Shown here: positions 15,398 to 63,449 of the stretch, piece after piece
Numbering within the stretch: the first letter of the stretch is position 1
How the letters are laid out: each line of letters opens with the position of its first letter
From: Dehalococcoidia bacterium
Lineage (GTDB): Bacteria > Chloroflexota > Dehalococcoidia > SHYB01
Length of the DNA: 64,000 nucleotides
Direction: 5' to 3'
Assembly: GCA_034421515.1 (NCBI GenBank)
Contig: DAOUKH010000019.1
Span: forward strand, 14,794-78,793
The notes under the pieces: generated by a model
What the model was told of the DNA's origin: nothing
What the model saw: the letters and a program-made list of their open reading frames with translations, nothing else
Databases searched by the model: none
Translations under genes and position numbers: made by a program

Positions 15398-16180
15398 CTA
15401 CACGTGCCAACGCGCTACGTACCCGCGCCGAACGGTGTCAAGGAACTTCAAGTACTCTTTGTCAACGTCGACGCCAAGGCTATTGGCTCTGTCGACTCGA
15501 GGCGGGTTCACATTGTCGATATGGACAGGGATGAGCAGCAAATAATCGAATCCTTCTTGATGAGTCAAATTGGGAGTCCGAGTGGGAAGACCTCGAAAGT
15601 GTTCGAGAGTCTTCTCAGCATCGTCGGCGCGATTCTCACTAACCGCGAGGGGGAAGTCGTCCCAAAGGGTTTCGTCTCCCGTCGCAAGACGCGGGAGGAC
15701 GCTCCGTTCAAACTCCCCTGGCCGGTTCCGGTAGACTTTTTTCACTTGGTCAGCCACGTTGAGGTATCGCCTGGCTGTGCCAATGAGAACAGTACCGAGA
15801 ACGATCGCCTCTCGCCTCCGCTGCTGCACCTCGGACCTGAAGTTGTCCAAGTCGCGGAACCGCTCCCCTTTGTTTCGATGGGCCGTCAGCACCGACTTGT
15901 TCTCCAAGCAAACGCGGACGCGACTCAAGTCTGGCGTATCCGCCGAGCCGTGTATCTCGCAAACGAGCAGATCTGCCCTGCGCTTCTGAAGGTCTGGCGC
16001 GGGTTGGTTCAACCACCAACCGACCTTCCCATGAGCATGATCGTCCCGGATTTCAGTGCATCGTGAGAGTAGATCCGACCAAATGCCCTTACAGAGGATA
16101 TCTGAGTGCTCGGCTTTTCGATGGTTGTGGTATCCGCGTTCACTAATCCGGCGGATGACATCATCGAAGGGCGTGTTCAA
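15398..16180 (-). CDS. putative type II restriction endonuclease (PD-(D/E)XK)
   Basis: 260 aa. The TTG start overlaps the methylase stop (TTGA). Candidate catalytic motif ...RADLLVCEIHG-x22-VCLENKS (D ... E-x-K). It lies in an AT-richer island. No family recognised. Confidence 0.6.
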   Translation of the reverse strand: MNTPFDDVIRRISERGYHNHRKAEHSDILCKGIWSDLLSRCTEIRDDHAHGKVGWWLNQPAPDLQKRRADLLVCEIHGSADTPDLSRVRVCLENKSVLTAHRNKGERFRDLDNFRSEVQQRRREAIVLGTVLIGTARRYLNVADQVKKVYRNRPGEFERSVLPRLATGDETLWDDFPLAVSENRADDAEKTLEHFRGLPTRTPNLTHQEGFDYLLLIPVHIDNVNPPRVDRANSLGVDVDKEYLKFLDTVRRGYVARWHV

Positions 16181-22383: not shown

Positions 22384-22782
22384 CCCCTCCCAACCTCTCC
22401 TTCTGGGAGCACCTCAAACCTCTCCCCTCTGGGGGAGACTGAGAGAGGGCACGCGCCGCAGGCGCGTCGGCGGGGCGGGGTGCGGCGGTCCCCTCCGGCC
22501 TCTTCTCCCCCGGAGACCTTTGCGTAACCCGCGACGCCGCAGGAGGATCGTCCCTGTAGGGGCGACCCTCGTGGTCGCCCACTCCCTGATCACCACCAAC
22601 CGCGGTCGAAACCCGCCGTCCCTCCCCTGTAGGGGCGCTTCGCGAAGCGCCCGTTCCCTATTCCCCGAATGGCTTCGTGGGCCCTGGTCAAGGTTACGCA
22701 AAAGGCCTCCCAGAGGGAGAGAGGCTTGGGATGGCGCTTCCACGGGCGGCGCCCCATGCCGTACCCTTACGGGCGAGCGCCT
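22384..22782. repeat. interspersed mosaic hairpin repeats, cluster R2
   Basis: Contains the modules TCTCCCCTCTGGGGGAGACTGAGAGAGGGC, CTTTGCGTAACCC...GATCGTCCCTGTAGGGGCGACCCTCGTGGTCGCCC, GTAGGGGCGCTTCGCGAAGCGCCC and GGTTACGCAAAAGGCCTCCC. All of them recur elsewhere in the window. Confidence 0.8.
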
Positions 22783-27439: not shown

Positions 27440-27717
27440 CGCTACGAGCGCGCAACCGGGACCCCCTGCCCCCTCTCTCGCTGGACACCTTGGCACAACC
27501 GGCAATGCCGGCAGCGGATCATCCGTGTAGGGGCAACCCTCGTGGTTGCCCAGGGGTGCGGGCGGGGTCTTCTCCCCTCCTGCCTCTCTCCCTCTGGGAG
27601 AAACTGAGAGAGGGCTGGGGTGGGGCGCGGTGGGGCGCGGGGGTCTTCCCCCTCTCCCGCTGGGAGAGGGTTGGGGTGAGGGCGGGGCGCACCAAACCTC
27701 CCAAAGTCGGCTCGGCT
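27440..27717. repeat. interspersed mosaic hairpin repeats, cluster R3
   Basis: 27516-27576 matches 35094-35154 over 61 bp with 1 mismatch (GGATCATCC(G/A)TGTAGGGGCAACCCTCGTGGTTGCCCAGGGGTGCGGGCGGGGTCTTCTCCC). TCTCCCTCTGGGAGA-type hairpins are also present. Confidence 0.85.
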
Positions 27718-34984: not shown

Positions 34985-35311
34985 GTTGCCGCAATGTTGG
35001 ACTGCCGCCCCGCCTCTCCGCAAGAGGCCGGCCCGCGGAGCGGTCCCAGACCCTTCCCCTCTGGAGACCGTTGCACAACTCGTCGGCGCCGGCGGATCAT
35101 CCATGTAGGGGCAACCCTCGTGGTTGCCCAGGGGTGCGGGCGGGGTCTTCTCCCTTCCCCCGTAGGGGCGATTCACGAATCGCCCGTTCCCTATCCTCCG
35201 AACGGCCTTGTGGGGCTCGGCCAAGGTTACGCAAGGGTCTCCCCTCTGGGGGAGATTTGAGAGAGGGCGCGCGCCGTCAGGCGCGCGGGCGCCCGCAGGG
35301 CGCCGCTCTCC
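34985..35311. repeat. interspersed mosaic hairpin repeats, cluster R4
   Basis: 35094-35154 is near-identical to 27516-27576. 35238-35303 is the reverse complement of 51505-51571. GTAGGGGCGATTCACGAATCGCCC...GGTTACGCAAGGGTCTCCCC parallels 22628-22700. Confidence 0.85.
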
Positions 35312-36295
35312 CTACAGCAGACCCTGCTCCCTGTACCAGGCAGCGGCGCGTCTCGCGCCTTCTCCGAAGGAGACTTGCGGCTGCCAGCCGAGGTCGGCCT
35401 CGATGGCCTCGTTCGAGCAGATCCAGTACCGCTGCCGCATCTCGACCACCTTGTCGCGCGAGAGCGGAGTGGCCTTCCGCGTCACGGCGCCGAACGCCTC
35501 CGAGGCGAGCCCTGCCAGCCAGTAGGCCCACAAAGGTGTAGGCAACACCAGCGCCTTGCGTCCCATCGCCGCCTCGACGTGGGCCACGAGGTCGCGCCAG
35601 GTGTAGCGCCACCCATCGTCGGCGGTGTACGCCTTGCCGCCGACCGCGGCGCTCGACGTGGCGAGGTCGGCCGCTGCCCGAGCCGCGTCCTCGGCGTAGA
35701 TGATGGAGAGGGTGTTGCGCCCGCCGTAGAGCAGCGGCGCGAAGCGCAGCTTCACGAGTTTGAAGAAGGAGAGCAGGGCGAAGTCTTTGGGGCCGTAGAC
35801 CGCGGGCAGGCGGAGCATCACGGCGCGGTCGCCGAGCGGAGACCGCCGGACGAGGGCCTCCCCCTCGGCCTTGGCGCGCCCGTAGACGGAGACGGGCGCG
35901 AGGGCGGCGTCGAGCGGTCTCGGTACGCCGTCGGGGCTCGGCCCGTGCGCGGCGAGGCTGGAGACGTAAACGAAGCGCTTCAGACCGGGGACCTCGCGCT
36001 CGACGGCTGCGAGCAGGTTGCTGGTTCCCTGAGCGTTCACCTCCTGGAACTCGCGCGCCGACCGCGCCTTCACCAGCCCCGCGGCGTGGATGACGGCGTC
36101 GACCCCGCGCGCCGCCGGGCCCAGCGACGCGGCGTCGGTGAGGTCGCCCACGGCTTCCTCGAATGGGATGCCTTCGAGGAAACGGCGGCTGCTCGTGGTA
36201 CGGAGGAGGACGCGCACCTCGTGACCGCTGGCGGCAAGCTGCTCGGCGATGTGGGAGCCGACGAATCCGGTGGCGCCGGTGACGAGGACCTTCAT
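35312..36295 (-). CDS. NAD-dependent epimerase/dehydratase-family SDR reductase
   Basis: MKVLVTGATGFVGSHIAEQL (Rossmann TGxxGxxG) and a YxxxK-type catalytic segment (VYGRAK). It starts 1 nt after the upstream stop. Confidence 0.85.
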   Translation of the reverse strand: MKVLVTGATGFVGSHIAEQLAASGHEVRVLLRTTSSRRFLEGIPFEEAVGDLTDAASLGPAARGVDAVIHAAGLVKARSAREFQEVNAQGTSNLLAAVEREVPGLKRFVYVSSLAAHGPSPDGVPRPLDAALAPVSVYGRAKAEGEALVRRSPLGDRAVMLRLPAVYGPKDFALLSFFKLVKLRFAPLLYGGRNTLSIIYAEDAARAAADLATSSAAVGGKAYTADDGWRYTWRDLVAHVEAAMGRKALVLPTPLWAYWLAGLASEAFGAVTRKATPLSRDKVVEMRQRYWICSNEAIEADLGWQPQVSFGEGARRAAAWYREQGLL

Positions 36296-36296
36296 G

Positions 36297-37460
36297 CTAG
36301 GCGGCCCGCCCTTCCGTGAAGCCGATGTCCTTTTCGTAGATGCGGAACGTCTTGTAGTGCTCGCATTCCATCCGGCGGAGCACGGCGGTGATAGCGTGGT
36401 TGTCTTCGAGCGTCCAGGAAAGCTCGGTGTTCCGGTAGCCGCGGGCCGTCCCACGCCGGGTGATCTCGTCGATGAGCAGATAGGGCAGGCCGGCGAGGTC
36501 GCGGCTCCGGAATTCCTTGCCCACGCCCACCAGGAAGAGACGGCCGCTCTTGAGTCGGCGCACCTTGACGCGCCACAGCAGCTTCAAGAAGCCAAGGGGG
36601 AAGAGTCTGCCGCCGAGGTCGCGGATCGCCTCGTTGAGGTCGGGGACGCCCACGGCGATGCCGGCGGTCCGGCCGCCGACCTCGACGACGATGACCACCT
36701 TGGGATCGACGATGGGGCGCAGCGTGCTTGCCAGGTTGTCGGCCTCCGCGCCGGTCACGGGGACGAAGCCCCAGTTCTCCGACCACGCGTCGTTGAAGAC
36801 GTCGAGAATGGCGTGGATCTCTTGCCGGTACCGGCGCATGCGAATGGGACGGACTGTCACGTCGGGGCGAGCGCGCAGCCGCTCGACGCTGCGGGCGGCC
36901 CGTGGAGGCGGCCGCGTCCAGTCGAAGCGCCAAGCGTAAAGGTCCTTGGCCTTGCGGAAGCCCGCTCCTTCGAGCAGGTCGAGGTAGTAGGGATGGGTGT
37001 AGGGCGTCATGACGCGGGGCGGCGAGTCGAAGCCGTCGGCCAGCAGGCCGGCGATGCCGTTGATGGAGAAGCTCATCGGCCCACGGATGCGCTCCATCCC
37101 GCGTTCCGCCAGCCACGACTCTGCCGCGCCGAGGAGCGCGGCGGCGGCCTCGGGGTCGTTCTCGCATTCGAAGAAGCCGAAGAAGCCCGTCTTTTCCGCA
37201 TGGCGGTCGTTGTGTGCGGGGTCGATCTGCGCGGAGATGCGCCCTGCCGTCCGGCCGTCCTCCCGGTAGGCAAGGAAGAGCGCCGCCTCGGCCTGTTGCA
37301 GGAAGGGGTTGCGCTTGGGGTCGAGCTCGGCCCGCTCCATCAGCGCAAGGGGCGGCACCCAGTGGGGATTGCCTTCGTACAGGCGCCGCGGCGCGGCGAT
37401 GAACGCCTCCACGCCGCGGCCGGATACCGGCTCGACGCGGATGCGGCCCGTGGTCTCCAC
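36297..37460 (-). CDS. GNAT-fold N-acyltransferase-like protein
   Basis: GTG 37460 lies 11 nt after the upstream stop. The C-terminal half (...VVEVGGRTAGIAVGVPD...LFLVGVGKEFRSRD.AGL.YLLI...G...G....ELSWTLEDN...) resembles proteins I recall as annotated GNAT/N-acetyltransferase. This assignment comes from memory of that pattern. Confidence 0.6.
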   Translation of the reverse strand: METTGRIRVEPVSGRGVEAFIAAPRRLYEGNPHWVPPLALMERAELDPKRNPFLQQAEAALFLAYREDGRTAGRISAQIDPAHNDRHAEKTGFFGFFECENDPEAAAALLGAAESWLAERGMERIRGPMSFSINGIAGLLADGFDSPPRVMTPYTHPYYLDLLEGAGFRKAKDLYAWRFDWTRPPPRAARSVERLRARPDVTVRPIRMRRYRQEIHAILDVFNDAWSENWGFVPVTGAEADNLASTLRPIVDPKVVIVVEVGGRTAGIAVGVPDLNEAIRDLGGRLFPLGFLKLLWRVKVRRLKSGRLFLVGVGKEFRSRDLAGLPYLLIDEITRRGTARGYRNTELSWTLEDNHAITAVLRRMECEHYKTFRIYEKDIGFTEGRAA

Positions 37461-37471
37461 GCGGGCCGGGG

Positions 37472-38743
37472 CTAGATGAGCCCTCGGGCCTTGCCGACGG
37501 CTTTGAACTGTTCGAGCGCGTAGTCGATCTGCTCCGGCGTCTGCGTCGCCATGCAGCTGATGCGCAGCAGGGCGCGGCCCTTCGCGGCGGCCGGGAAGAC
37601 GACGGGGTTGGTGTAGACGCCGTGCTCGAGGAGCGCGTGCCACACGCGCACCGTCTCAACCTCGTCGCCGACGGGAACTGGAGCCACCAGCGACTCGGAG
37701 TCCGACACCTCGAAGCCCAGCCTCCTGAGGCCGGCGCGGAGTTGCTGCCCCAGGGCTCGAACGCGCTCGACGCGCTCCGGCTCGCTTTCAAGCACCTCCA
37801 GCGCCGCGAGGACCGCCGCCGTCGACGCGGGGGGCAGGCTCGCGCTGAACACCATCGGCCGCGCGAAGTGGCGCACCCAATCGACCACGGGCTGCTGCCC
37901 GGCGACGAAGCCGCCGATGGAGGCGAGCGACTTCGAGAAGGTGCCCACGATCAGGTCGACGTCGTCTTCGAGCCCGAAGTGGCTCCCCGTACCGCGCCCT
38001 CCCTCGCCGAGCACGCCGATGGCGTGGGCGTCGTCGACAAGCAGGCGCACGGCGTGCTCGCGGCAGGCCGCGACCACGCCGGGCAGATCGACGACGGCGC
38101 CGCTCATGCTATAGACGCCGTCGACGATGACGAGGGCGGGGCCGCCGTCGAGGCCCCGCAGGACCGTATCGAGGTGTCTTGCGTCGTTGTGGCGGAAGCG
38201 CAGCATCTTGCCGCCGGAGAGGCTGCACCCGTCGTAGATGCTGGCGTGATCGGCCTTGTCGACGACGGCGGCGGAGCCGGGCCCAACCAGCGCGGAGATT
38301 GCGCCGAGGTTCGCCTGGTAGCCGGTGGTGAAGACGAGGGCGGCTTCCTTGTTGAGGAACCGCGCGATGCGTTCCTCAAGCTGCTCGTGCAGGTCCATAG
38401 TGCCGTTCAGCACCCGCGAACCCGTCATCGATGTGCCGAAGCGCTGGATCGCCGCCGCCGCTGCTTCCATCACCTTGGGGTGGCGCGTGAGGCCGAGGTA
38501 GTTGTTTGAGCCCAGCATCAACACCCGCTTGCCGTAGATCACGGCCTCGGGCCCTTCATTGCGTTCCAGCGGCTGATAGAAGGGATAAGCCTGGGCCGCC
38601 TTCGCCTCCTGCGGCAGGGTGAAATCGAACGTCGGGGCGAAGATGTCCCGGTCTTGGACGCGTGTCGCGCGCCCCTGGATCAGGCGGTCGATGGAAAGGC
38701 CGTCGCCGCCGGAATCGCCGTTGTCGCTCTCGTGGGTGGACAT
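37472..38743 (-). CDS. alpha-oxoamine synthase family PLP enzyme (serine palmitoyltransferase / 8-amino-7-oxononanoate synthase-like)
   Basis: ...LGSNNYLGL..HP......A...FG....GSR.LNG....H..LE......., DDAH..GVLG..GRG, and GTFSKSLASIGGF (the PLP lysine). Confidence 0.85.
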   Translation of the reverse strand: MSTHESDNGDSGGDGLSIDRLIQGRATRVQDRDIFAPTFDFTLPQEAKAAQAYPFYQPLERNEGPEAVIYGKRVLMLGSNNYLGLTRHPKVMEAAAAAIQRFGTSMTGSRVLNGTMDLHEQLEERIARFLNKEAALVFTTGYQANLGAISALVGPGSAAVVDKADHASIYDGCSLSGGKMLRFRHNDARHLDTVLRGLDGGPALVIVDGVYSMSGAVVDLPGVVAACREHAVRLLVDDAHAIGVLGEGGRGTGSHFGLEDDVDLIVGTFSKSLASIGGFVAGQQPVVDWVRHFARPMVFSASLPPASTAAVLAALEVLESEPERVERVRALGQQLRAGLRRLGFEVSDSESLVAPVPVGDEVETVRVWHALLEHGVYTNPVVFPAAAKGRALLRISCMATQTPEQIDYALEQFKAVGKARGLI

Positions 38744-38752
38744 CGCCCGGGC

Positions 38753-40414
38753 CTAGTACTCCATGCGGGATTCCCGGCCCATCCAGTGGTGGACCTGCTT
38801 CTTGCGGGCGGGCCGCTTGTTGATGACGACGTTCACCAGCGACGCCTTGCCCGAGGCCAGCGACCGCTCGACGGCGGGCTTCAGCTCCTCGGGCCGCTCC
38901 ACGTGCTCGCCGTGCCCGCCGAAGGCCTCCATGATCTTGTCGTACCGCACGCCTTCGGGCTGGCTCTCCGCTTTCGCTGCCGAGCCAAGCTCCATCTTCT
39001 GCGGCCCGCCGACGGAGACGTTGTTCGCCACGACGAAGACGATGGGCAGGTCGTTGCGCACCGCGGTCTCCGCCTCCATGCCGTTCCAGCCGAAGGCGTA
39101 GTCGCCGTTGAACGAAAAGACCTGCTTGCCCGGTGTCGCCGCCGCCGCGCCGATGGCGTAGGGCACGGAAACGCCCATGCAGCCGCTGACGCCGGCGTCG
39201 AGCCGGTGGCGGGGCTGGTAGTTCGGCACCATGACCCGCGAGATCGCCATCGCGTTCTCGCCGTCGGCGGTCACCGTGGCGTCGTCGTCCATCAGTTCAA
39301 CGACGTCGCGGTACATCTGGTACATGTTCATCGGCGCCGCGTCGGCTTCGAGGAACTCGCTGATCGCGGAGGCGTTCTTCTCGGCCTCCATTTGGAGAGA
39401 TGGCAGCCACGGCGTCTCGGGACGGCGCGCGCCGCCCGCGGCGTCGAGGACTTGCCGGAAGACGGCCTTGGCATCCCCGACGAGGCCGACCTCGGCGGGT
39501 GCGCCGTTCCCGATCTCCGACGGGTCGATGTCAATCTGCACGACTTTGACGTCGGGCGAGAATCGCGGCGGCGCGCCGAAGTGGAAGATCCAGTTGAAGC
39601 GGGCGCCGGCGAGGATCACGAGGTCGGCGTTCTGGAGGGCGTAGCTGCGGGCACCGGAGGCGTTCAGCGGGTGGTCGTCGGGGACAACGCCCTTGCCCAT
39701 CGGCGAGGGCACGAAGGGAATCTGCAGCCGGTCGACGAGCTCGCGGACCTCCTCGGCGGCGTCGGACCACGCCAGGCCCTTGCCGACGAGCAGGAGGGGT
39801 CGTTCGGCCTGCAGGATCTCCCGCGCCGCCGCTTCGACCAGGGCGGGGTCGGCGAGCGGGCGCGCCGGCTCCGCCGATTTGGGGAAGAACCGGACCTCGT
39901 CCTCTTCCACGGCGCCGGAGATGACGTTCGAAGGAAGGTCGAGATAGACCGGCATCGGTCGGCCGTTCATCATCTTCTGGATTGCAGCGTGGGCATAATA
40001 GGGAAGCTGTCGAGGATCCTCGATCTGCACCGACCACTTGCAGAACGGCGCCGCCGCCTCGACCTGGGGGGCCTCCTGGAAGTCGCCCCGGTAGCGGCGG
40101 CGGAGGTCGCCGTTGCCGCCGATGACCAGCACGGGCCAGCAGTTCGACCGCGCCGTCTCCAGCGCCGTCAGCGCGTTGGTCATCGCCGGTCCCGAGGGGC
40201 AGATGGCCACGCCCGGGCGGCGCGTCACGTAGCCGTAGGCTTGGGCGGCGAGCCCGCTCGCCTGCTCGTGCCGGAAGTTGATGAGCCGCATGCCGTGCTG
40301 CCGCATCGACGTGTTGATCTCACCCATCGGGTCGCCGGGGAGGTTGAAGACGGTGTCCACGCCCTCGGTCTCGAGCTGCCTGGTGAGGATTTCCGCGCCG
40401 CTGATTCGCGCCAT
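38753..40414 (-). CDS. thiamine-diphosphate enzyme (acetolactate synthase / oxalyl-CoA decarboxylase / 2-hydroxyacyl-CoA lyase family)
   Basis: ATG 40414. N-terminus GAEILTRQLETEGVDTVFNLPGD and a C-terminal TPP-binding GDYAFGWNG...NN motif. Confidence 0.8.
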   Translation of the reverse strand: MARISGAEILTRQLETEGVDTVFNLPGDPMGEINTSMRQHGMRLINFRHEQASGLAAQAYGYVTRRPGVAICPSGPAMTNALTALETARSNCWPVLVIGGNGDLRRRYRGDFQEAPQVEAAAPFCKWSVQIEDPRQLPYYAHAAIQKMMNGRPMPVYLDLPSNVISGAVEEDEVRFFPKSAEPARPLADPALVEAAAREILQAERPLLLVGKGLAWSDAAEEVRELVDRLQIPFVPSPMGKGVVPDDHPLNASGARSYALQNADLVILAGARFNWIFHFGAPPRFSPDVKVVQIDIDPSEIGNGAPAEVGLVGDAKAVFRQVLDAAGGARRPETPWLPSLQMEAEKNASAISEFLEADAAPMNMYQMYRDVVELMDDDATVTADGENAMAISRVMVPNYQPRHRLDAGVSGCMGVSVPYAIGAAAATPGKQVFSFNGDYAFGWNGMEAETAVRNDLPIVFVVANNVSVGGPQKMELGSAAKAESQPEGVRYDKIMEAFGGHGEHVERPEELKPAVERSLASGKASLVNVVINKRPARKKQVHHWMGRESRMEY

Positions 40415-40535
40415 GCCGCGACCCCTTTCCGTCGTGCCTTGCCACCGACGCCGCCCTTCGGCGGGAAGGCCATAGTATGCCTGTAACGCCCGTCGGATTC
40501 CATGGGCGGGCAATGATACCTGCTCTGCCCCCGGT

Positions 40536-41804
40536 TTACAGCCGCCAGAGTCGCGGCGCAATCAGTACGAGCAGCGCGTTGAGCCCGACCCCCAGGGCGC
40601 CCAGCAGGACGAAGACGGCCTCCACGCCGATGATCTCCGCCGCGCCGCCGGCCCAGAGCGCGCCGAGCGGTACCGCGCCGTGGGTCATGAAGAAGAGCGA
40701 GATGGCCCGCCCGCGGTAGCGGTCGTCGGCGTACACCTGGACCATCGCGTTCCCTTCGACGAAGAGCACCGTCTGGGTCGCGCCGAGAATCAACATGGCC
40801 GCGATGGCGACGGCGGCGATTGGGGCCGCGCCCATGGCGAGCAGCATGGCCCCGGCGACCATCGCGGCCACGACGAGCCACTTGGCCTTCCCTTTGGGAT
40901 AGCCGAGCCCACCCACGACCACGGAGCCCAGAAGCCCGCCGGCCCCCATCAACGACATGAGCAGCCCGAAGCCGCCCGGCCCGAAGCCGAGGGCGTTGTC
41001 CGCGTAGGCGGGCATGAGGTTGAGGAAGCCGAGCACGCAGACCGCCGCGATCATGCTGTGGGTGAGGAGGAGCAGCAGTGGCTGGTCGCGGCGGACGTAG
41101 GCGAGCCCCTCGCGGATGCTGGCGAAGATGTTCTCCCGGGCGATCGCGCGGCGGGCCGTGACCGGCCGGAGGCGGCTGAGCATGAGCATCGAGAGCACGC
41201 AGGCCGCGGCCTGCAAGATGTAGGCCCCCTCCACGCCGATGCTGCCAATGAGCACGCCGCTCATCGCGGGGCCCGCCACCCGCATCAGGTTCTGCGCGAT
41301 CGAGTTGAGCGAAATCGCGGAGGCGAGCTCGCGTTCCGTCACCAGGTCGAAGGCCAGCGTGTGGCGTGACGGCCCGTTGGCCGAGAAACACATGCCGGTC
41401 AGGACCGCGGTGACGTAGAGGTGCCACACCTGGACGATGTCGGTGATCACAAGCGTGGCGATGACCACCGCGAGACTCGCCAGTGAGAACTGGCTGGCGA
41501 TCAACACCTTGCGCCGGTCGAGCCGGTCGGCCAGCGCGCCGGAGAACGGGGCGCAGAAGGTCATGGTGCCGCCGCTGGACACCGCGACGAGGCCGAGCTG
41601 CAGCGGCGAGTCGGTGAGGTCGAAGACGAGCCAGCCGAGGGCGATCTGCTGCGTCCACAGCCCCATCTGCGCGAAGAATGTGCTGGTGAGCAGGATGCGG
41701 AACTGCGGGACCCGGAGGGCCTCGAAGACCCTGCCGCCGGCCCCCGCGCCGGGCCTCGTGGCTCGCCTAGCCACTGCCGCTCCACGCGCGCAGCCATGGA
41801 GCAA
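40536..41804 (-). CDS. MFS transporter
   Basis: About 12 TM segments. The N-terminus ...FRILLTSTFFAQMGLWTQQIALGWLV... is MFS_3/EntS-like. The start is uncertain (TTG 41804 or internal). Confidence 0.8.
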   Translation of the reverse strand: MLHGCARGAAVARRATRPGAGAGGRVFEALRVPQFRILLTSTFFAQMGLWTQQIALGWLVFDLTDSPLQLGLVAVSSGGTMTFCAPFSGALADRLDRRKVLIASQFSLASLAVVIATLVITDIVQVWHLYVTAVLTGMCFSANGPSRHTLAFDLVTERELASAISLNSIAQNLMRVAGPAMSGVLIGSIGVEGAYILQAAACVLSMLMLSRLRPVTARRAIARENIFASIREGLAYVRRDQPLLLLLTHSMIAAVCVLGFLNLMPAYADNALGFGPGGFGLLMSLMGAGGLLGSVVVGGLGYPKGKAKWLVVAAMVAGAMLLAMGAAPIAAVAIAAMLILGATQTVLFVEGNAMVQVYADDRYRGRAISLFFMTHGAVPLGALWAGGAAEIIGVEAVFVLLGALGVGLNALLVLIAPRLWRL

Positions 41805-41844
41805 GACGGTAGAATCGCTGGAGCGCGCTCATGCTTCGCTCATG

Positions 41845-42035
41845 GTTGAGTTCTTTGCGTAACCCGCGGCGCCGGCACGGGATCGTCCCTGTAGGGGCGA
41901 CCCTTGTGGTCGCCCCTTCCTATCACCCGAACGGTCTCGTGGGGCTTGGCCAAGGTAACGCAAGGGTCTCCACGGTCGGAGTATCCGCACCGGCTCCGGA
42001 ACGCGCCGGTAGCGTAGCGTACACGGAAATGGCTC
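41845..42035. repeat. interspersed mosaic hairpin repeats, cluster R5
   Basis: 41853-41914 (CTTTGCGTAACCCGCGGCGCC...GATCGTCCCTGTAGGGGCGACCCTTGTGGTCGCCC) parallels 22518-22580. It is followed by the ...CCGAACGGTCTCGTGGGGCTTGGCCAAGGTAACGCAAGGGTCTCC module. Confidence 0.8.
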
Positions 42036-42939: not shown

Positions 42940-43655
42940 TGCAAGGCCGGGCGTTGCCCCTTCTGCCCACGGAGACCCTTGCGTCACCGGGGCGGCCGTT
43001 CTTCCCCGCGGTTCCGGGAGGCACTGGGCCCGACTCCCTCGCCGGCGAGGGGCACTGGGTCCGACTCTCCCGCGATCCATCCGCCACTTTCGCAAGTCCC
43101 GCGGATGGCCCTACCGCTCCGCAGGCGGCAGGGAACATATGTTCGCTATGAATACTCTACGGCTGGTGGGCGACCTTGTCAAGCGCGGTGTGGCACTGGG
43201 GGAGCGGGCGCGTCGCGACGCGCCCCTACAGGGGAGGTGCGGCATCGACCCGCACGGGGTTGGGTGGGCTTTGGTGGTGATGAGGGGGCCCCTCATCTCA
43301 ATCTTCTCCCAGGGGGAGAAGAGGTAAGACCCACCCCGGCACCGCCGACGCGCCTGTGGTGCGTGCCCTCCCTCAGTCCCTCCCAGAGGGAGGGAGGCTT
43401 AAGGTGCTCTCCCAGGGAGGGAGAGGTTCAAGGGGTGCCCCTATTGGGGGTGGCGGGTCTTGATGAGCCGTTGGTGGTTGTCGGGAGTGGGCGACCACAA
43501 GGGTCGCCCCTACAGGGATGATCCCTTGCCAGCGTCGCGGGCTATGCAAAGATCTCCAGCGGGGGAGAGGGAAGACCACCCGGCGGCCCTCTCTCAGTCT
43601 CTCCCAGAGGGAGAGAGGCTTAAGGTGCCCCCCAGAAGGGGAGGACTAGGGTGGG
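42940..43655. repeat. interspersed mosaic hairpin repeats, cluster R6 (largest, about 0.7 kb)
   Basis: Holds at least six modules in both orientations. Examples: GGGCGCGTCGCGACGCGCCCCTACAGGGGA, ATGAGGGGGCCCCTCATCTCAATCTTCTCCCAGGGGGAGAAGAGG, two CCCTC(C/T)CTCAGTC(C/T)CTCCCAGAGGGAG(G/A)GAGGCTTAAGGTG copies, and GGGCGACCACAAGGGTCGCCCCTACAGGGATGATCCC. Confidence 0.85.
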
Positions 43656-43659
43656 CGCT

Positions 43660-44850
43660 CTAGATCGCGCCGCGCTCCCGCAGGCCGCCGATCTCCTCCG
43701 CCGAGTAGCCGGCTTCCGACAGGACCTCGTCGGTGTGCTCGCCGAGCTTGGGGGCGGAGCGTCTCGGCGCGCCGGGCGTCTGGGGGAGGTGGACCGGGAC
43801 GCCGATCTCGGTCAGGCTGCCGACCTCGGGGTGGGGCACCTCGGTGACGTAGCCGTTGGCGCGGGCTTGGGCGTCCTCGGCGACCTCGGCATAGTCGAGC
43901 ACCGGCTGGCAGATGATGTTGCGCTGGCGCATCGCCTCGACCCACTCGTCGCGGGGCTTGGAAAGGAAGCGCTCGTCGAGCATGGCGATCAGCTCGGCGC
44001 TGTTGGCGGCCCGCGCCTCGGCGTCGCGGAAGCGCTCGTCGTCGCGAAGGTGCTCGATGCCGAGGATTTCGACGAAAGCGGGCCAGTAGCGGTCGGGCCC
44101 GACGCCGCCGATGGCGAGGAGCTTGCCATCGGCGCAGCGGTAGCTGTTCATTAGGGGGTTCGGGGTGCGGCCGCGCGACTTCGGCGCGGGCAGCGAGCCG
44201 TTGATGAGGTAGCCGTTGATCGCCATGGCCTGGAGCATGAGGATGCCGCCGAGCTGCGACGTCTGGATGTGCTGGCCGACGCCGTGGCGCTCGCGGGCGA
44301 TCACGCCCATCGCCACGCCCCAGGCGAGGGTCATGGCGCCGCACTGGTCGGAGATGCCTCCGGCGGGGGACTCGGGGTAGTCGCGGCCCAGCGAGTTCAT
44401 CCACAGGAAGCCGCCCCGGGCCTGCCCCAGCGAGTCGAAGATGCCGTCGCTCGCGTGGGGCCCCTCGCGGCCCAGCCCGGTCACCGAGGCGTAGATGATG
44501 CCGGGGTTGATCTTGCGGACGGTCTCGTAGTCCACGCCCAGCCGCTCGACGACGCCGAGCCGGAAGTTCTGAGTGATGGCGTCGGCCTTCTCCGCAAGCC
44601 GGAGGAAGACGGCGCGCCCTTCGTCGGACTTGAGGTTCAGGGTGATGCTCCGCTTGTTGCGGTTCATCGTCTCGAAGTAGGAGTTATGCGCGCCGGTCGA
44701 CGTGACGATGCCCCGGCCGGGGTCGCCGCCCGCGGGGTCTTCGACCTTGATGACCTCGGCCCCCATGTCGGAGAGCATGACCGTGGCCCACGGGCCGTTC
44801 TGGAAGATGGTGAGGTCGAGGATCTTGATGCCGTCGAGCGGCGCCGCCAT
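43660..44850 (-). CDS. CaiB/BaiF family (class III) CoA-transferase
   Basis: ATG 44850 follows GGGAGG. LDGIKILDLT...GP.AT..L.DMGAEVIKVE is the family N-terminus. The 650-aa ORF in the track is an upstream read-through. Confidence 0.9.
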   Translation of the reverse strand: MAAPLDGIKILDLTIFQNGPWATVMLSDMGAEVIKVEDPAGGDPGRGIVTSTGAHNSYFETMNRNKRSITLNLKSDEGRAVFLRLAEKADAITQNFRLGVVERLGVDYETVRKINPGIIYASVTGLGREGPHASDGIFDSLGQARGGFLWMNSLGRDYPESPAGGISDQCGAMTLAWGVAMGVIARERHGVGQHIQTSQLGGILMLQAMAINGYLINGSLPAPKSRGRTPNPLMNSYRCADGKLLAIGGVGPDRYWPAFVEILGIEHLRDDERFRDAEARAANSAELIAMLDERFLSKPRDEWVEAMRQRNIICQPVLDYAEVAEDAQARANGYVTEVPHPEVGSLTEIGVPVHLPQTPGAPRRSAPKLGEHTDEVLSEAGYSAEEIGGLRERGAI

Positions 44851-44891
44851 GTCGCGGCCTCCCTTTGGTGTGGTGGTCGGACCTGCCCCGA

Positions 44892-45983
44892 TTAGTTGGG
44901 GAGGTCCATGCGGTACGAGGCGACCGCGTTGCTGTAGGTGATCTTCGCTCGGTGGGCATCGGCGACGCCGTCGAAGAGGCGGTCGATCACGTCGGTGGAC
45001 TCGGGCCAGGTGCTGTCGTCGTGGGGATAGTCGGAGGCCCACATGAATATGTCGGGGCCGACGAGCTCGGTGAGGCCGACGCCGGCGCGGTCCTGCATGA
45101 AGGTGGCGCGCACGTTCCGCTTGAAGTGCTCGCTTGGGAGCATCCCTGAAGGGAAGGGCGGCGCGTGCCGCGAGCCCTTGCGGATGTAGGCGTGGTCCAT
45201 GCGCTCCATCAGGTGCGGCACCCAGCCGATGTCGTTCTCGGCGGAGACGACGGTCACGCCGGGGAAGCGCTCGAAGACGTGAGAGAAGAGGAGCGTGGTG
45301 AGCGACAACTGGATGACGTGCGTGATGCAGGAGTATTTGGCCAGGAAGAGGTCGGAGACGTCGCGCGCCCTGCCGGCGAAGGTGTGCAGGCTGATCGGCA
45401 TGCCGAGGTCTTGGGCCGCCGCCCAGAAGCGGTCGTAGTGGCCGGTGCCGTAGCTGTAGCCGTCCTGCGGCTCGGCCCAAGCCATGCCGCCGGCGAGTCC
45501 CATCGCGGCGCACCGCTGCAGCTCCTCGACGCCGGCCTCGACGTCGTAGAGCGAGATCAGGCCCAAGCCGTAGAGGCGCTTGGGGTTGGTCGCCGCGTAC
45601 TCGGCGACCCAATCGTTGTAGGCGCGGAAGGTGTCGCGCTGCATGGCGGGGTCGTCGAGGCCGAAGAGCCGCATGGCGAAGCTGGGGTAGAGGACTTCGG
45701 CGGCGATGCCGTCCTTGTCCATGTCCACGATGCGGGCCTCGGGGTCCCAGCCGCCGGAGAGTCCCTCCGAGAGCCGCGTCGCGAAGCCGAGCCCGGCCTT
45801 GGCGGGCGAGATGAAGCCGCCGACGACGGCGGGGCCGGAGACGCCGTTGACCTCGAACTTGGCGCCCTCGGCGTCCTCGGTCAGACGGGGAGCGCGGCCC
45901 TCGTATTCGGGGCCGAGCCGCGACGTCCAGAGGTCGGGCGGCTCGACGACGTGAGAGTCCGCGGAAACGATGCTCGAGCCCAT
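44892..45983 (-). CDS. amidohydrolase_2 family protein (ACMSD/LigW-like metal hydrolase-decarboxylase fold), paralog 1
   Basis: MGSSIVSADSHVVEPPDLW...; a C-terminal ...MWASDYPHDDSTWP... metal-binding signature. Confidence 0.85.
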   Translation of the reverse strand: MGSSIVSADSHVVEPPDLWTSRLGPEYEGRAPRLTEDAEGAKFEVNGVSGPAVVGGFISPAKAGLGFATRLSEGLSGGWDPEARIVDMDKDGIAAEVLYPSFAMRLFGLDDPAMQRDTFRAYNDWVAEYAATNPKRLYGLGLISLYDVEAGVEELQRCAAMGLAGGMAWAEPQDGYSYGTGHYDRFWAAAQDLGMPISLHTFAGRARDVSDLFLAKYSCITHVIQLSLTTLLFSHVFERFPGVTVVSAENDIGWVPHLMERMDHAYIRKGSRHAPPFPSGMLPSEHFKRNVRATFMQDRAGVGLTELVGPDIFMWASDYPHDDSTWPESTDVIDRLFDGVADAHRAKITYSNAVASYRMDLPN

Positions 45984-46193
45984 GCGCGTACTCCGTGGGC
46001 CGCCGAACCGAGGCGCCGGTGCGGGGCCGTTTTCGCCCTTCTCAAAGGGAAGAAGCGGTGCCGCAATTCTGGTGTGGGGCCTTGCCGCTGTCAAGAACGG
46101 CGACGGTTGCCTGTAAGCCCTTGCTTGTAAGATAGAGGCCGCGCCGGGCGCGACGCCCGGACAAGGAGGCGCCGTGGCGCACCGCTATCGCTC

Positions 46194-47417
46194 GTGCAAG
46201 GCCGGACCGCGGTGAGCGCGCTGGAAGGTCTGCGCGTCCTCGACCTGTCGCGCGTGCTCGCCGGTCCGTTCGCCACGCAGATGTTCGCCGACCTCGGCGC
46301 CGAGGTGTGGAAGGTCGAGCCGCTGTGGGGCGACGAGACCCGGGCCTGGGGGCCGCCCTTCACCGACGGCGAGAGCGCCTACTACCTCTCGACGAACCGC
46401 GGCAAGCAGAGCCTCGCGGTGAACCTCAAGGATGAGCGGGGAAGCGGCCTGGTGCGCCGCCTCGCCGCCAAGGCCGATGTCTTCGTGGAGAACTACAAGA
46501 CCGGCGACCTGGCCCGCTTCGGCCTCGACTACGACACCCTGTCCGACGGCCACCCCGAGCTGATCTATGTCTCGATCACCGGCTTCGGACAGACGGGGCC
46601 GCGGGCCGCCGAGCCCGGCTACGACGCCGCCCTGCAGGGCATGTCGGGGATCATGAGCGTGACCGGCGAGCCCGGCGGCCCGCCCATGAAGGTCGGCGTG
46701 GCATGGATCGACGTGATCACCGGCCTGACCGCCACGGCGGGCGTCCTCGCTGCCTACGTGGAGCGGCTGCGCGGCGGCGCCGGTCAGCGCATCGACCTGT
46801 CCCTGTTCGACGTGGGCTTCATGGCGATGGCGAACCAGGGCCAGAGCTACCTGGCGACCGGCGAACCGCCCGGCCCGCTCGGCAGCGCCCACCCGCAGAT
46901 CGTGCCCTACCAGGCGTTCGAGGCCTCCGACGGCTGGCTCATGCTCGCCGTGGGCAACGACCGCCAGTACCAGCGCGCCGTCGAGGCGCTCGGCGAGCCG
47001 GCGCTGTGGGACGACGAACGCTTCCAGACCAACGCGGGCAGGGTGGCGCACCGCGACGAGCTCGTTCCCAAGATCGCGGCATCGATCGCGGCCCGCACCA
47101 AGGACGACTGCATGCGGCTCTTCAACGAGGCGGGCGTGCCCGCGACGCCGATCAACAACCTCCGCGAGGTGCTCGCCGACCCCCAGGCCGACGCGCGGGG
47201 GCTCGTCTGGGAGCAGGCCCACCCGAAGCTGGGCAGCGTGCCGCTCGCGGCCAACGCCCTCCAGCACATGAGCCGTACGCCGGCGCGGCCCTCGTCGCAC
47301 CCGCCGCTGCTCGGGGAGCATTCGCGAAGCCTGCTCGCCCGCGAGCTCGGCCTTGGCGCCGGCGAGATCGACGCGCTGGAGGCCGACGGGGTGCTCAAGA
47401 CCGCCGGCGGGGGCTGA
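46194..47417 (+). CDS. CaiB/BaiF family (class III) CoA-transferase
   Basis: LEGLRVLDLSRVLAGPFATQMFADLGAEVWKVEP. GTG start at 46194 or 46212. Confidence 0.9.
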   Translation: MQGRTAVSALEGLRVLDLSRVLAGPFATQMFADLGAEVWKVEPLWGDETRAWGPPFTDGESAYYLSTNRGKQSLAVNLKDERGSGLVRRLAAKADVFVENYKTGDLARFGLDYDTLSDGHPELIYVSITGFGQTGPRAAEPGYDAALQGMSGIMSVTGEPGGPPMKVGVAWIDVITGLTATAGVLAAYVERLRGGAGQRIDLSLFDVGFMAMANQGQSYLATGEPPGPLGSAHPQIVPYQAFEASDGWLMLAVGNDRQYQRAVEALGEPALWDDERFQTNAGRVAHRDELVPKIAASIAARTKDDCMRLFNEAGVPATPINNLREVLADPQADARGLVWEQAHPKLGSVPLAANALQHMSRTPARPSSHPPLLGEHSRSLLARELGLGAGEIDALEADGVLKTAGGG

Positions 47418-48322: not shown

Positions 48323-48419
48323 CAGACCCGTGATTGCCCCCGGCGTTGGGGGCGGGTATGCTGCCCCGGGGCGCGCTAGGGCGCGTCGACTCAGGCACAG
48401 CATTCGCACGGGAGGCGAC

Positions 48420-49328
48420 ATGTCCGACTACCGATTCGTAACCTATGAGACCCTCGAAGAGGGCCGGATCGCGCGCATCATGATGAACCGGCCGAAGCAG
48501 CGGAACGCCCAGAACCGCGGCCTGCTCGTCGAGTTGAACGACGCCTTCCTGAAGGCCGAGGCCGACGACGAGGTGCGCGTGGTCATCCTGGGCGGCGTCG
48601 GCCCCGCCTTCTCGGCAGGCCACGACCTCGGCTCCTCCGACGCACGCGCCGAGCGGGCCCCCGGCCCCGACCAGCACTACACCATGCAGGCGTACGGCGG
48701 CACGAAGGTGGGCGCCGAGCAGCGCACCCTCCAGGAGTGGCACTTCTTCTTCGACAACACGCGCCGCTGGCGCAACCTCCGCAAGATCACCATCGCCCAG
48801 GTGCAGGGCAACTGCCTCGCGGCCGGCCTGATGCTGGCGTGGTGCTGCGACCTCATCGTCGCCGCCGACAACGCCGTCTTCGCCGACGTCGTGGGCACGC
48901 GCCTCGGCATGTGCGGCCTCGAATACTTCGCCCACCCCTGGGAGTTCGGCGTCCGCAAGACGAAGGAGCTCATGCTCACCGGCGACTCCATCGACGCCGA
49001 GGAGGCCTACCGGCTGGGCATGGTGAGCAAGGTCTTCAAGCTGGACGACCTGGAGCAGCAGACGCTGGCCTTCGCCAGCCGGATCGCCAGCCTGCCGTCG
49101 ATGACGTCGCTGATGATCAAGGAGTCGGTGAACGAGACGCAGGACAACCAGGGCTTCTATAACGCGCTGAGCGCCTGCTTCACGCTCCACCAGTTGAACC
49201 ATGCCCACTGGTCGGAGGTGAGCAAGGGCGAGATCGCCGCCGCGCGTCCTGAGGACGGCATCCCCCACTGGCGCGAGGCGCCCCCGGTGAAGCCGGCGGT
49301 GAAGACGATGGCCGAGGCGAGCGTCTAG
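48420..49328 (+). CDS. enoyl-CoA hydratase/isomerase (crotonase) family protein
   Basis: ATG 48420 follows GGGAGG. ...GRIARIMMNRPKQRNAQN..L..EL.DAF..AE.DDEVRVVILGG.GPAFSAGHDL. Confidence 0.9.
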   Translation: MSDYRFVTYETLEEGRIARIMMNRPKQRNAQNRGLLVELNDAFLKAEADDEVRVVILGGVGPAFSAGHDLGSSDARAERAPGPDQHYTMQAYGGTKVGAEQRTLQEWHFFFDNTRRWRNLRKITIAQVQGNCLAAGLMLAWCCDLIVAADNAVFADVVGTRLGMCGLEYFAHPWEFGVRKTKELMLTGDSIDAEEAYRLGMVSKVFKLDDLEQQTLAFASRIASLPSMTSLMIKESVNETQDNQGFYNALSACFTLHQLNHAHWSEVSKGEIAAARPEDGIPHWREAPPVKPAVKTMAEASV

Positions 49329-51479: not shown

Positions 51480-51735
51480 TAGCCTTGAACCGAGTGGGGG
51501 AGCAGCGCCCTGCGGGCGCTCGCGCGCCTGATGGCGCGCGCCCTCTCTCAAATCTCCCCCAGAGGGGGAGAGGGAAGACCACCCCGCTCCGCCCGTCTTC
51601 CAACCATCGGCGAGGTTACGCAAAGGTCTCCAGAGGGGGAGAGGGAAGACCACCCCGCTCCACCCGTTTTCCAACCATCGATGGGAGTTGTGCAAAGGTC
51701 TCCTTCAGTCCGGAACGGTCCTCATCGTGAGGCCC
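51480..51735. repeat. interspersed mosaic hairpin repeats, cluster R7 (includes a 2 x ~74-bp tandem copy)
   Basis: 51505-51571 is the reverse complement of 35238-35303. 51553-51626 and 51627-51699 are tandem copies (TCTCC(CC)CAGAGGGGGAGAGGGAAGACCACCCCGCTCC(G/A)CCCGT(C/T)TTCCAACCATCG...GCAAAGGT). Confidence 0.9.
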
Positions 51736-63306: not shown

Positions 63307-63449
63307 GACTTAAGGCTCCTGCGGCGCCTCGGTGACCACGAGTCACGCAAGGCTTAGGGGTTCCCGTATCCCGACGTCCCGACTCGATTGCCGGGAGTAT
63401 ACGTGATTCGCCGTCGCGCGGGCCGGAGAGGCGCCGGCCCCACGCCTCC

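Follow-up and report, generated by a model that had tools for sequence, protein, structure and literature searches.

The question raised by this locus is whether a compact block of five genes encodes a bacterial ceramide pathway, in whole or in part. The block (positions 35312–41804 of the window, i.e. the whole 64 kb stretch of DNA analysed) consists, according to the ORF list, of five minus-strand genes in the order MFS (first), TPP, AOS, GNAT and SDR, and direct reading of the junctions gave intergenic gaps of 121, 9, 11 and 1 nt. The original prediction had described such a tightly packed, same-strand arrangement, and all ORFs and gaps were found as claimed; the motif GTFSKSLASIGGF was located in the AOS translation, and the enzyme and domain classes assigned to the block were borne out by Pfam and NCBIfam. 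The last three genes (35312–38743) likely represent the predicted ceramide core cassette, spt-bcerS-cerR, of an uncultured Chloroflexota organism, probably of the class Dehalococcoidia. This assignment is based on sequence homology, on the fold, on motifs shared throughout the family and on very strongly conserved gene linkage, whereas substrates, product and expression are inferred.

Gene linkage was assessed in 80 metagenome loci encoding a Chloroflexota-type GNAT homologue. In all 59 contigs with room for it, an AOS gene immediately preceded the GNAT gene, and the SDR gene was located directly downstream in 45 of 46 loci. Of 80 species-representative genomes spanning many phyla, approximately 45 had an AOS gene immediately upstream of the GNAT homologue, and most of these also harboured an SDR gene nearby. 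The trio recurs in Myxococcota, Gemmatimonadota, Binatia, Zixibacteria, Planctomycetota and Nitrospirota, among others, and its arrangement is not due to chance. Lipid-related neighbours were also observed, with a PAP2_3 gene inside the cluster of one relative (L094), and LPG_synthase_TM and PAP2 genes adjoining the cluster in L002 and others.

The two remaining genes show a much narrower distribution. [quoted passage not shown] It exhibits the three-TPP-domain architecture of prokaryotic HACL/S, which were its best matches among solved structures (8vzj, 497 bits; 8vza, 486 bits; 6xn8, 465 bits), compared with 336–370 bits for true OXCs. Its scores against the NCBIfam OXC models (456 and 432 bits) were below the respective cut-offs (557 and 739), as was its score for the actinobacterial HACL equivalog. 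The first gene of the co-directional block (40536..41804, minus strand) precedes the TPP gene by 121 nt and encodes an MFS_3 (EntS/H+-antiporter-like) transporter; the true start is likely GTG 41774, yielding a 412 aa protein as called in relatives. The transporter matched Pfam MFS_3 (185 bits) and MFS_1 (155 bits), with NCBIfam TIGR00900 and EntS below cut-off. The TPP gene, 9 nt upstream of spt, is probably co-transcribed with the latter, and in the lineage of the window the genes for the HACL/OXC-family enzyme and the MFS_3 transporter would have joined the transcription unit upstream of the trio.

This proximity could indicate that all five genes constitute one pathway, in which the HACL-like enzyme handles 2-hydroxyacyl-CoA for ceramide and the MFS transporter exports or flips the product, a proposal that we consider unlikely. 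Just as doubtful is its more specific form, whereby the enzyme makes the acyl donor of an α-hydroxy-ceramide from fatty aldehyde and formyl-CoA, or shortens 2-hydroxy acyl chains by α-oxidation. Both are consistent with the 9 nt spacing, with the similarity of the TPP enzyme to HACL/S structures, and with the order MFS-TPP-(PAP2_3)-spt-bcerS-cerR, which is retained in L094 despite GNAT and SDR protein identities of only 61%. HACL/S enzymes cleave 2-hydroxyacyl-CoAs or condense formyl-CoA with carbonyls (aldehydes in PMC11271303). In mammals, 2-OH fatty acids are substrates of HACL1 and HACL2, a route leading to the odd-chain fatty acids of sphingolipids (PMC10398889). Moreover, two family III CoA-transferases, of the family that includes formyl-CoA transferase, are encoded 2–6 kb upstream, and in other lineages bCerS is fused to, or adjoined by, a fatty-acid hydroxylase, suggesting that acyl-chain hydroxylation is recurrent.

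However, the only places where TPP and MFS genes accompanied the trio were the window and three related contig types (L001, L093 and L094). They adjoined the trio in none of 29 other Chloroflexota-type loci with room for both, nor did they do so at any of the 80 loci from genomes of other lineages, and the MFS gene was absent from all 160 other loci. Homologues of the TPP enzyme (65–81% identity) are instead encoded beside CoA_transf_3 (family III CoA-transferase) genes, away from any trio, which fits a stand-alone role in formyl-CoA/2-hydroxyacyl-CoA or oxalyl-CoA metabolism, and MFS_3 members are typically small-molecule exporters, going by NCBIfam names. The family assignment of the TPP enzyme was upheld, whereas its place in a conserved pathway was not: most likely, the TPP and MFS genes are lineage-specific accessory genes or simply neighbours, outside the conserved pathway. 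The literature searched contained no report of genomic linkage between the HACL/S family and a ceramide cassette.

The spt-like gene (37472..38743, minus strand) encodes a PLP-dependent α-oxoamine synthase (AOS) of 423 aa (Pfam Aminotran_1_2, 219 bits), which is predicted to be a serine palmitoyltransferase (SPT). SPT equivalogs were its leading NCBIfam matches (447 and 411 bits), followed by BioF (368 bits) and Kbl (344 bits), all below cut-off. The top solved structure was the Bacteroidota-type SPT of Sphingobacterium multivorum (PDB 3a2b/8guh; 357 bits, residues 40–417), followed by S. paucimobilis SPT (296 bits), compared with 271 bits for Thermus BioF/Kbl and 241 bits for E. coli Kbl. The SPT of the E. 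coli yghO cluster shares 45% identity with the AOS, and an NJ tree placed the AOS in a clade with three characterised SPTs (bootstrap 85/100) that excluded E. coli Kbl and BioF. The His, Asp, His and Lys (GTFSKS) PLP residues align with H159, D231, H234 and K265 of S. paucimobilis SPT, and the same PLP residues are present in S. multivorum SPT. Based on structure scores and the tree, the PLP enzyme groups with characterised SPTs, in line with the original prediction, rather than with E. coli BioF or Kbl.

Specificity for serine is only a prediction, as the AOS reaches the curated cut-off of none of the three NCBIfam SPT equivalogs, including the CFB equivalog (447 versus 640 bits), in which it differs from Bacteroidota-type SPT. 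The trio product may be a sphingolipid-like N-acyl amino-alcohol lipid that is not serine-derived, with GNAT and SDR acting as in the ceramide reading, although we judge this to be distinctly improbable. It is equally improbable, in our estimation, that the AOS uses alanine or glycine, yielding 1-deoxy-ceramides, or cysteate, yielding capnine- or sulfobacin-type sulfonolipids. Beyond the sub-threshold scores, these possibilities draw on the clear homology between the AOS and cysteate-C-fatty acyltransferases (244–245 bits), and on environmental bacteria with 1-deoxyceramides and sulfated ceramides, as reported in PMC11334938. In addition, Arg378 of S. paucimobilis SPT is replaced by Val in the AOS. 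The same Val is, however, present in S. multivorum SPT, a bona fide serine enzyme according to its PDB entry names. Furthermore, SPT structures scored >100 bits above the sulfonolipid AOSs (357 versus 245), the AOS lies within the clade of characterised SPTs, and a cysteate synthase gene was not found near it. That the AOS simply serves biotin synthesis as a BioF, or threonine catabolism as a Kbl, beside unrelated housekeeping GNAT and SDR genes is extremely improbable, since the strong BioF and Kbl model matches are expected for any AOS, SPT models and structures outscore them, both E. coli enzymes lie outside the SPT clade, bio or tdh genes were not found nearby, and trio linkage is essentially invariant.

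Within the predicted ceramide cassette, the bcerS-like gene (36297..37460, minus strand, GTG start) encodes a tandem-GNAT acyltransferase of 387 aa, a member of the YghO/CC_1154 family and a predicted N-acyltransferase (bacterial ceramide synthase). The protein had no NCBIfam or PDB sequence match, and Pfam GNAT matches were sub-threshold only. By tblastn, it was 38.7% identical to E. coli YghO over 96% of its length, and 43% identical over its full length to a Roseomonas protein annotated as 'dATP pyrophosphohydrolase'. The Roseomonas gene lies in a sphingolipid neighbourhood resembling that of Caulobacter, next to a nucleotidyltransferase and LptF/G paralogues. yghO (ECD_02850) is listed as a homologue of Caulobacter CC_1154 (PMC9386255). 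An AlphaFold2 model (pLDDT 80.5) returned tandem GNATs as the best Foldseek matches (MAB_4324, glucosamine N-acetyltransferase and MshD). Alignment of 11 sequences from approximately nine phyla revealed 43 invariant columns, including GRIxA, GP..S.N, NWGFVP.T..E and SW.L..N. Natural fusions of the family to an AOS, to a fatty-acid hydroxylase and to a fatty acyl-AMP-ligase-type AMP-binding domain count as Rosetta-stone support for the bCerS reading. The suggestion that the middle protein is a bCerS-type N-acyltransferase is thus favoured by full-length family membership and a predicted tandem-GNAT fold.

The cerR-like gene (35312..36295, minus strand) encodes an extended short-chain dehydrogenase/reductase of 327 aa (Pfam Epimerase, 3Beta_HSD and NAD_binding_10), with an N-terminal GATGFVGS motif and YGRAK (Y138), and is predicted to reduce the 3-keto group of a sphingoid or ceramide intermediate. 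The protein is 31% identical over its full length (E 1e-29) to the SDR of the E. coli FAAL-SDR-ACP-SPT operon, ECD_02852, a homologue of CC_1164 (PMC9386255). In an NJ tree it grouped with all spt/bcerS-linked SDRs and proteobacterial CerR homologues, in only 112 of 200 bootstraps (56%), and within the tree set an unrelated Gluconobacter SDR was nearly as similar to it (28% identity) as was the E. coli CerR homologue (29%). Homology to the latter and synteny nevertheless agree with the proposed CerR-type reductase.

Based on these assignments, the PLP enzyme would form 3-ketodihydrosphingosine by condensation of L-serine and a long-chain acyl-thioester. The latter is probably acyl-CoA, given that the window encodes neither a dedicated ACP nor an acyl-ACP synthetase. 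The tandem-GNAT enzyme would N-acylate the amino group from acyl-CoA, and the SDR would reduce the 3-keto group with NAD(P)H to form a dihydroceramide-type lipid. The proposed match to the Caulobacter sequence of Spt, bCerS and CerR holds for the enzyme classes. On reaction order, gene order is silent; whether acylation precedes or follows reduction is not readable from sequence and is disputed in the literature.

The ceramide core of Caulobacter crescentus comprises Spt (CCNA_01220/CC_1162), bCerS (CCNA_01212/CC_1154) and CerR (CCNA_01222/CC_1164). The window likewise encodes an AOS-type Spt, a soluble GNAT-type N-acyltransferase and an NAD-dependent epimerase/dehydratase-type reductase, each homologous over its full length to the corresponding E. 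coli and alphaproteobacterial proteins; the bCerS and CerR assignments run via E. coli and Roseomonas homologues and a published homology table rather than the Caulobacter sequences themselves. In contrast to Caulobacter, where cerS lies approximately eight genes from spt, and to Bacteroidota, where the three pathway genes are scattered, the trio is contiguous, and its host belongs to the Chloroflexota. Genes for a dedicated ACP (AcpR), an acyl-ACP synthetase (AasR), LptF/G paralogues and head-group functions were not found within the 64 kb window, and the SDR begins directly with the Rossmann motif, whereas Caulobacter CerR is periplasmic. The E. coli yghO cluster (BL21 ECD_02850–02854, examined in record NZ_MG591698.1) resembles the trio at the identities given above. 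For this cluster, co-expression of SPT_Ec with the Caulobacter acyl-ACP system (AcpR) supported 3-oxo-sphinganine formation, and YghO and ECD_02852 were proposed as N-acyltransferase and reductase, respectively (PMC9386255). In E. coli, yghO is transcribed separately, and the fatty acyl-AMP ligase, ACP and LptF/G paralogues of the cluster have no equivalent in the window, which encodes the HACL-like enzyme and MFS transporter instead.

The original prediction regarded sphingolipid synthesis as unexpected in such a lineage, a view that is out of date: a 2024 Black Sea study (PMC11334938) names Chloroflexota as potential sphingolipid producers and reports 218 Chloroflexota MAGs with Spt-like proteins. 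The ceramide reading, while apparently correct, is only mildly new, as the pathway has been described in other bacteria and predicted for Chloroflexota. The window resembles the Spt-like 'clade B' loci of these metagenomes, for which sphingolipid potential was deduced, in the same study, from Spt-like proteins with co-localised bCerS and CerR homologues; HACL-like and MFS neighbours are not described in the searched part of that text. Members of the GNAT family are abundant in MAGs labelled Dehalococcoidia, and every named homologue, whether of a ClpC-type marker or of a cluster protein, derives from a Dehalococcoidia or Chloroflexota MAG. Whereas marine Anaerolineae were stressed in PMC11334938, the window has its nearest named relatives among Dehalococcoidia-labelled MAGs.

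Five ORFs were found on the minus strand at 35312-41804, separated by gaps of 121, 9, 11 and 1 nt, an arrangement that had been read in the original prediction and was borne out here by ORF calls and direct reading of the junctions. The first gene, encoding an MFS transporter, ends with TAA at 40536; from the 412-aa MFS calls in relatives, its start is likely GTG at 41774 rather than TTG at 41804. It is followed after 121 nt by the gene for a TPP enzyme (start ATG 40414, stop TAG 38753), after a further 9 nt by that for a PLP-dependent alpha-oxoamine synthase (AOS; start ATG 38743, stop TAG 37472), after 11 nt by that for a GNAT protein (start GTG 37460, stop TAG 36297) and, with a gap of 1 nt, by that for an SDR (start ATG 36295, stop at 35312). 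The five genes were called with identical lengths in close relatives (412, 553, 423, 387 and 327 aa, respectively). The long plus-strand ORFs across the block, for which no homology support was obtained, are antisense ORFs of the kind commonly seen at a genomic GC content of 68-70%. A scan for sigma-70 promoters and terminators returned nothing exceeding shuffled sequences; the TPP gene is probably co-transcribed with the three genes that follow it.

The linkage of these last three genes, i.e. those for the AOS, the GNAT protein and the SDR, was examined in 80 metagenome loci encoding GNAT homologues 53-61% identical to that of the window. The AOS gene lies immediately upstream of the GNAT gene in all 59 Chloroflexota-type contigs with room for it, and the SDR gene immediately downstream in 45 of 46. 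Among 80 species-representative genomes, the AOS gene is immediately upstream in approximately 45, in most of which the SDR gene is adjacent or within 1-2 kb. The trio was observed in Chloroflexota, Myxococcota, Gemmatimonadota, Zixibacteria, Binatia, Eisenbacteria, Planctomycetota, Nitrospirota, Ignavibacteria and Alphaproteobacteria, and these counts are indicative of a rigid and widely spread cassette. Homologues of the fatty acyl-AMP ligase (FAAL) and ACP of the E. coli yghO cluster were present in the alphaproteobacterial locus L054, whereas the window and the Chloroflexota-type loci all lacked them. The window differs from the rhodobacterial five-gene system (spt, acpR, aasR, cerR and cerS) in that the spt-linked ACP and acyl-ACP synthetase are missing. 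Being compact (3.4 kb) and free of this proteobacterial ACP/acyl-ACP synthetase dependence, the trio lends itself as a candidate for expression in a heterologous host.

The middle protein of the trio had no match among NCBIfam models or PDB sequences, and its Pfam GNAT matches were all below threshold. Its family, which comprises 7847 clusters at 50% identity (E<=1e-3), was recognised only by tblastn against annotated plasmid and chromosome records. In this search, E. coli YghO aligned over 96% of the length with 38.7% identity (E 4e-58), and a Roseomonas protein annotated as 'dATP pyrophosphohydrolase' showed 43% identity (E 9e-91). The E. coli record places yghO beside genes for a fatty acyl-AMP ligase, an SDR, an ACP, an AOS and lptF/lptG paralogues, while the Roseomonas gene is preceded by LptF/G paralogues and a sterol-desaturase-family gene, with a nucleotidyltransferase gene next, in agreement with the neighbourhood described for Caulobacter CC_1152-CC_1168. 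Three of the E. coli 'plasmids' in PLSDB (NZ_MG591698.1, NZ_OL790696.1 and NZ_CP141089.1) carry the chromosomal glc-yghO-pitB region, two of them being 4.8-4.9 Mb in size; these records are evidently mislabelled chromosomes or chromosome fragments.

Caulobacter CC_1154 (CCNA_01212) is known from the literature as a bacterial ceramide synthase (bCerS), and a published homologue list (PMC9386255) equates 'aca: CC_1154, yghO ECD_02850', 'epi: CC_1164, ECD_02852' and 'spt: CC_1162, ECD_02854'. The connection from the window protein to CCNA_01212 is an indirect one via YghO, the homologue in Roseomonas and the Euryhalocaulis locus L054; the comparison with the CC_1154 and CC_1164 families (CCNA_01212 and CCNA_01222 in Caulobacter) was made through such homologues. 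YghO retains 68 of the 84 residues that are invariant in Chloroflexota homologues, and 43 columns are invariant across 11 sequences, YghO included, from about nine phyla, with motifs such as GRIxA, GP..S.N, NWGFVP.T..E and SW.L..N. An AlphaFold (AF2) model (pLDDT 80.5, pTM 0.81) predicts a tandem-GNAT fold, the best Foldseek matches (E 4e-13 to 1e-9) being tandem-GNAT proteins, including MAB_4324, a glucosamine N-acetyltransferase, the clavulanate tandem GNAT and MshD. Furthermore, database homologues were shown to include two AOS-GNAT fusions (P0173 and P0184, one of 780 aa and one with a truncated AOS), a fatty-acid hydroxylase-GNAT fusion (P0233), a fusion of the GNAT protein to a fatty acyl-AMP-ligase-type AMP-binding domain (P0268) and a duplicated GNAT-GNAT protein (P0121). 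The fusions to AOS, hydroxylase and AMP-ligase domains provide Rosetta-stone support for a role of the GNAT protein in transferring an activated fatty acid to the product of the AOS. The full-length homology to the YghO/bCerS family and the tandem-GNAT fold support the earlier description of this protein as N-acyltransferase-like.

The AOS (Pfam Aminotran_1_2, 219 bits) has a fold-type I PLP domain with the catalytic lysine in GTFSKS. Alignment with the serine palmitoyltransferase (SPT) of S. paucimobilis revealed conservation of H159, D231, H234, K265 and R390, and the position of R378 is occupied by Val, as it is in the S. multivorum SPT. Among NCBIfam models, the AOS scored highest against SPT-CFB (446.7 bits; cut-off 640), followed by SPT-BetaP (411.4; cut-off 500), BioF (368), BioF/Kbl (353), Kbl (344) and SPT-AlphaP (324.5; cut-off 670). 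Every one of these scores, including those for BioF and Kbl, falls under the curated cut-off of its model, which for the SPT equivalogs is expected of a Chloroflexota AOS because these models are clade-specific. Comparison with PDB structures gave 357 and 296 bits for the SPTs of S. multivorum and S. paucimobilis, respectively, as against 271 for Thermus BioF/Kbl, 244-245 for sulfonolipid cysteate acyltransferases, 241 for E. coli Kbl and 202 for BioF. In a neighbour-joining tree of 53 AOS sequences, calculated with a numpy distance routine and a small outgroup set, the window AOS grouped with the characterised SPTs of S. multivorum, S. paucimobilis and E. coli and with all bCerS-adjacent AOSs (85 of 100 bootstraps). 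An identity as BioF or Kbl was rejected, as the E. coli representatives of both fall outside this clade in the same distance-based tree, and the earlier assignment of the PLP enzyme to the Spt type was upheld. The AOS is predicted to condense L-serine with a long-chain acyl-CoA or acyl-ACP; the E. coli SPT has been reported to support the formation of 3-oxo-sphinganine when co-expressed with the Caulobacter acyl-ACP system (PMC9386255).

The SDR is of the extended type (Pfam Epimerase, 3Beta_HSD and NAD_binding_10), with the GxxGxxG NAD(P) site present as GATGFVGS and the catalytic YxxxK as YGRAK, starting at Y138. The SDR of the E. coli cluster aligned over the full length with 31% identity (E 1e-29). 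In a neighbour-joining tree, from which E. coli RfbD was removed as a long-branch intruder, all spt/bcerS-linked SDRs grouped with the E. coli and Euryhalocaulis CerR homologues, and Gox2253 (the best PDB match), HldD and GalE fell outside, although with only 112 of 200 bootstraps. Identity to the unrelated Gox2253 was 28%, compared with 29% to the E. coli CerR homologue, and the best NCBIfam matches, HpnA and OleD, were both under cut-off. As sequence comparison alone is indecisive for CerR, the assignment is carried by synteny, i.e. the 1 nt gap and the adjacency in 45 of 46 loci, which supports the proposed CerR-type reductase as a core gene.

By homology, the Spt would join serine and an acyl-thioester to yield 3-ketodihydrosphingosine, the YghO/bCerS-type GNAT protein would N-acylate this base, and the SDR would reduce the 3-keto group to give dihydroceramide. 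The order of N-acylation and reduction is disputed for Caulobacter in the literature, and gene order in the window cannot settle it. Caulobacter CerR is periplasmic, whereas the window SDR opens directly with the Rossmann motif, so the compartment argument made for Caulobacter does not obviously transfer. Substrate identities, expression, chain lengths and the presence of any head group are inferred.

The two upstream genes were shown to be less constant. [quoted passage not shown] It misses the OXC and actinobacterial HACL equivalog cut-offs (PRK09259, 455.8 against 557; TIGR03254, 431.9 against 739; NF058623, 267 against 600). The MFS protein is an MFS_3/EntS-like transporter according to Pfam and NCBIfam. 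Both genes lie beside the trio only in the window and in three related loci (L001, L093 and L094). Elsewhere, TPP homologues with 65-81% identity adjoin family III CoA-transferase (CoA_transf_3) genes, and in the window two genes of this family are located 2-6 kb upstream, past a divergent prmA. An acyl-CoA metabolism block, consisting of the two family III CoA-transferases, an Amidohydro_2 protein and an enoyl-CoA hydratase, occupies 43660-47417 and 48330-49328.

The HACL-like gene is most simply read as serving a formyl-CoA/2-hydroxyacyl-CoA function of its own and as having come to lie next to the cassette in a single clade. Biochemically, 2-hydroxy fatty acyl chains could plausibly link the TPP enzyme to the trio, but conservation lends this no support. 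It is rather improbable that this clade recruited the HACL/S-like TPP enzyme and the MFS transporter into one operon with the cassette, the former making the acyl donor or trimming chains and the latter moving the product, and with a PAP2_3 gene of head-group type added to that operon in a relative. Under such joint recruitment, the TPP enzyme would form 2-hydroxyacyl-CoA from a fatty aldehyde and formyl-CoA as donor for bCerS or, alternatively, would shorten 2-hydroxy acyl chains to give odd-chain species, and the MFS transporter would carry the product over the single membrane. If true, the TPP route would represent an O2-independent path to alpha-hydroxy-ceramides in place of the O2-dependent fatty-acid hydroxylases that other lineages have either fused to bCerS or encoded next to it. 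The view of the TPP gene as a conserved part of the pathway was rejected, as this gene is missing from all 29 other Chloroflexota-type loci whose upstream sequence is long enough. The original interpretation is supported for the three core genes, while a place of the TPP and MFS genes in the pathway is unproven. Of the features seen here, only the lineage-specific coupling to the HACL-like enzyme, at present no more than a genomic juxtaposition, could offer new insight into the ways in which bacteria diversify their ceramide acyl chains.

In locus L094, divergence from the window was uneven, with identities of 86% (TPP), 80% (AOS), 68% (MFS), 61% (GNAT) and 61% (SDR), which could reflect differing constraints or a recombination breakpoint between spt and bcerS. 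In this locus, an inserted PAP2_3 gene (3810-4619) separates the TPP gene from the AOS gene, and another is present at the start of L096. The PAP2_3 family of Pfam also includes eukaryotic inositol-phosphorylceramide synthases. In several loci, the trio is followed directly by an LPG_synthase_TM-family gene, in some cases together with one for a PAP2 phosphatase; relatives with such extra membrane-lipid genes include, besides L094, L002 (12132-14041), L102, L141, L144, L151 and L161. These neighbours hint at possible further lipid modification, head-group or flippase functions in the relatives; none of the PAP2_3, PAP2 or LPG_synthase_TM genes was found within the 64-kb window.

Named homologues of the ClpC-type ATPase encoded nearby (64-70% identity) derive without exception from Dehalococcoidia or Chloroflexota MAGs, as do those of the GNAT and TPP proteins. 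The nearest species-representative genomes are 'Chloroflexi bacterium CF_23' and 'uncultured Dehalococcoidia bacterium', and the closest relatives by GNAT protein (83-93% identity) are ENA metagenome contigs of up to 1.6 Mb. The earlier view that sphingolipid synthesis is unexpected in this lineage is out of date, since a study of Black Sea metagenomes flagged Chloroflexota as potential producers on the basis of 218 MAGs, with Anaerolineae mainly discussed (PMC11334938). Besides that study, a literature search returned no further paper tying Chloroflexota or Dehalococcoidia to sphingolipid synthesis. The ceramide pathway itself is already known, and the sole potentially new element is the clade-specific association with the HACL-like and MFS genes (and PAP2_3). 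The growing evidence for widespread bacterial sphingolipid synthesis, a spread that includes phyla without any cultured producer, is extended by the spt-bcerS-cerR cassette of the window, which is well delimited and belongs to a Dehalococcoidia-like lineage of soil or groundwater type.

Intergenic repeats of ~50-120 nt, carrying a GC-rich hairpin GGGGCGACC-N5-GGTCGCCCC plus a 'AAGGTTACGCAAGGGTCTCC' box, were observed at 22486-22740, 27457-27580, 35087-35270, 41821-41971, 43355-43640, 51559-51680 and 63445-63509. They look like REP- or MITE-type elements, and an Rfam search of them gave no match. Copies in the same orientation and 89% identical are present at both ends of the five-gene block (35190-35242 and 41919-41971); a repeat-bounded mobile cassette was rejected for lack of evidence, as the same repeats occur in several unrelated intergenic gaps and relatives keep the flanks. 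The only low-GC stretch of the window, at 16-18 kb (0.577 compared with ~0.68), contains a gene for an Eco57I/TaqI-like N6-adenine DNA methylase of the restriction-modification type (16177-17655, minus strand), which was probably acquired horizontally. Dense 12-nt-periodic repeats (GTGATCGTGCCCGTGGTCATGATC...) at 1-205, in a gene running past the window edge, would encode a His/Asp-rich HDHGHDH-like tract on the reverse strand. Finally, four direct repeats with a spacing of 111 nt (37 codons each) at 8898-9296, within the plus-strand ORF 7885-9774, suggest a repeat-domain protein.
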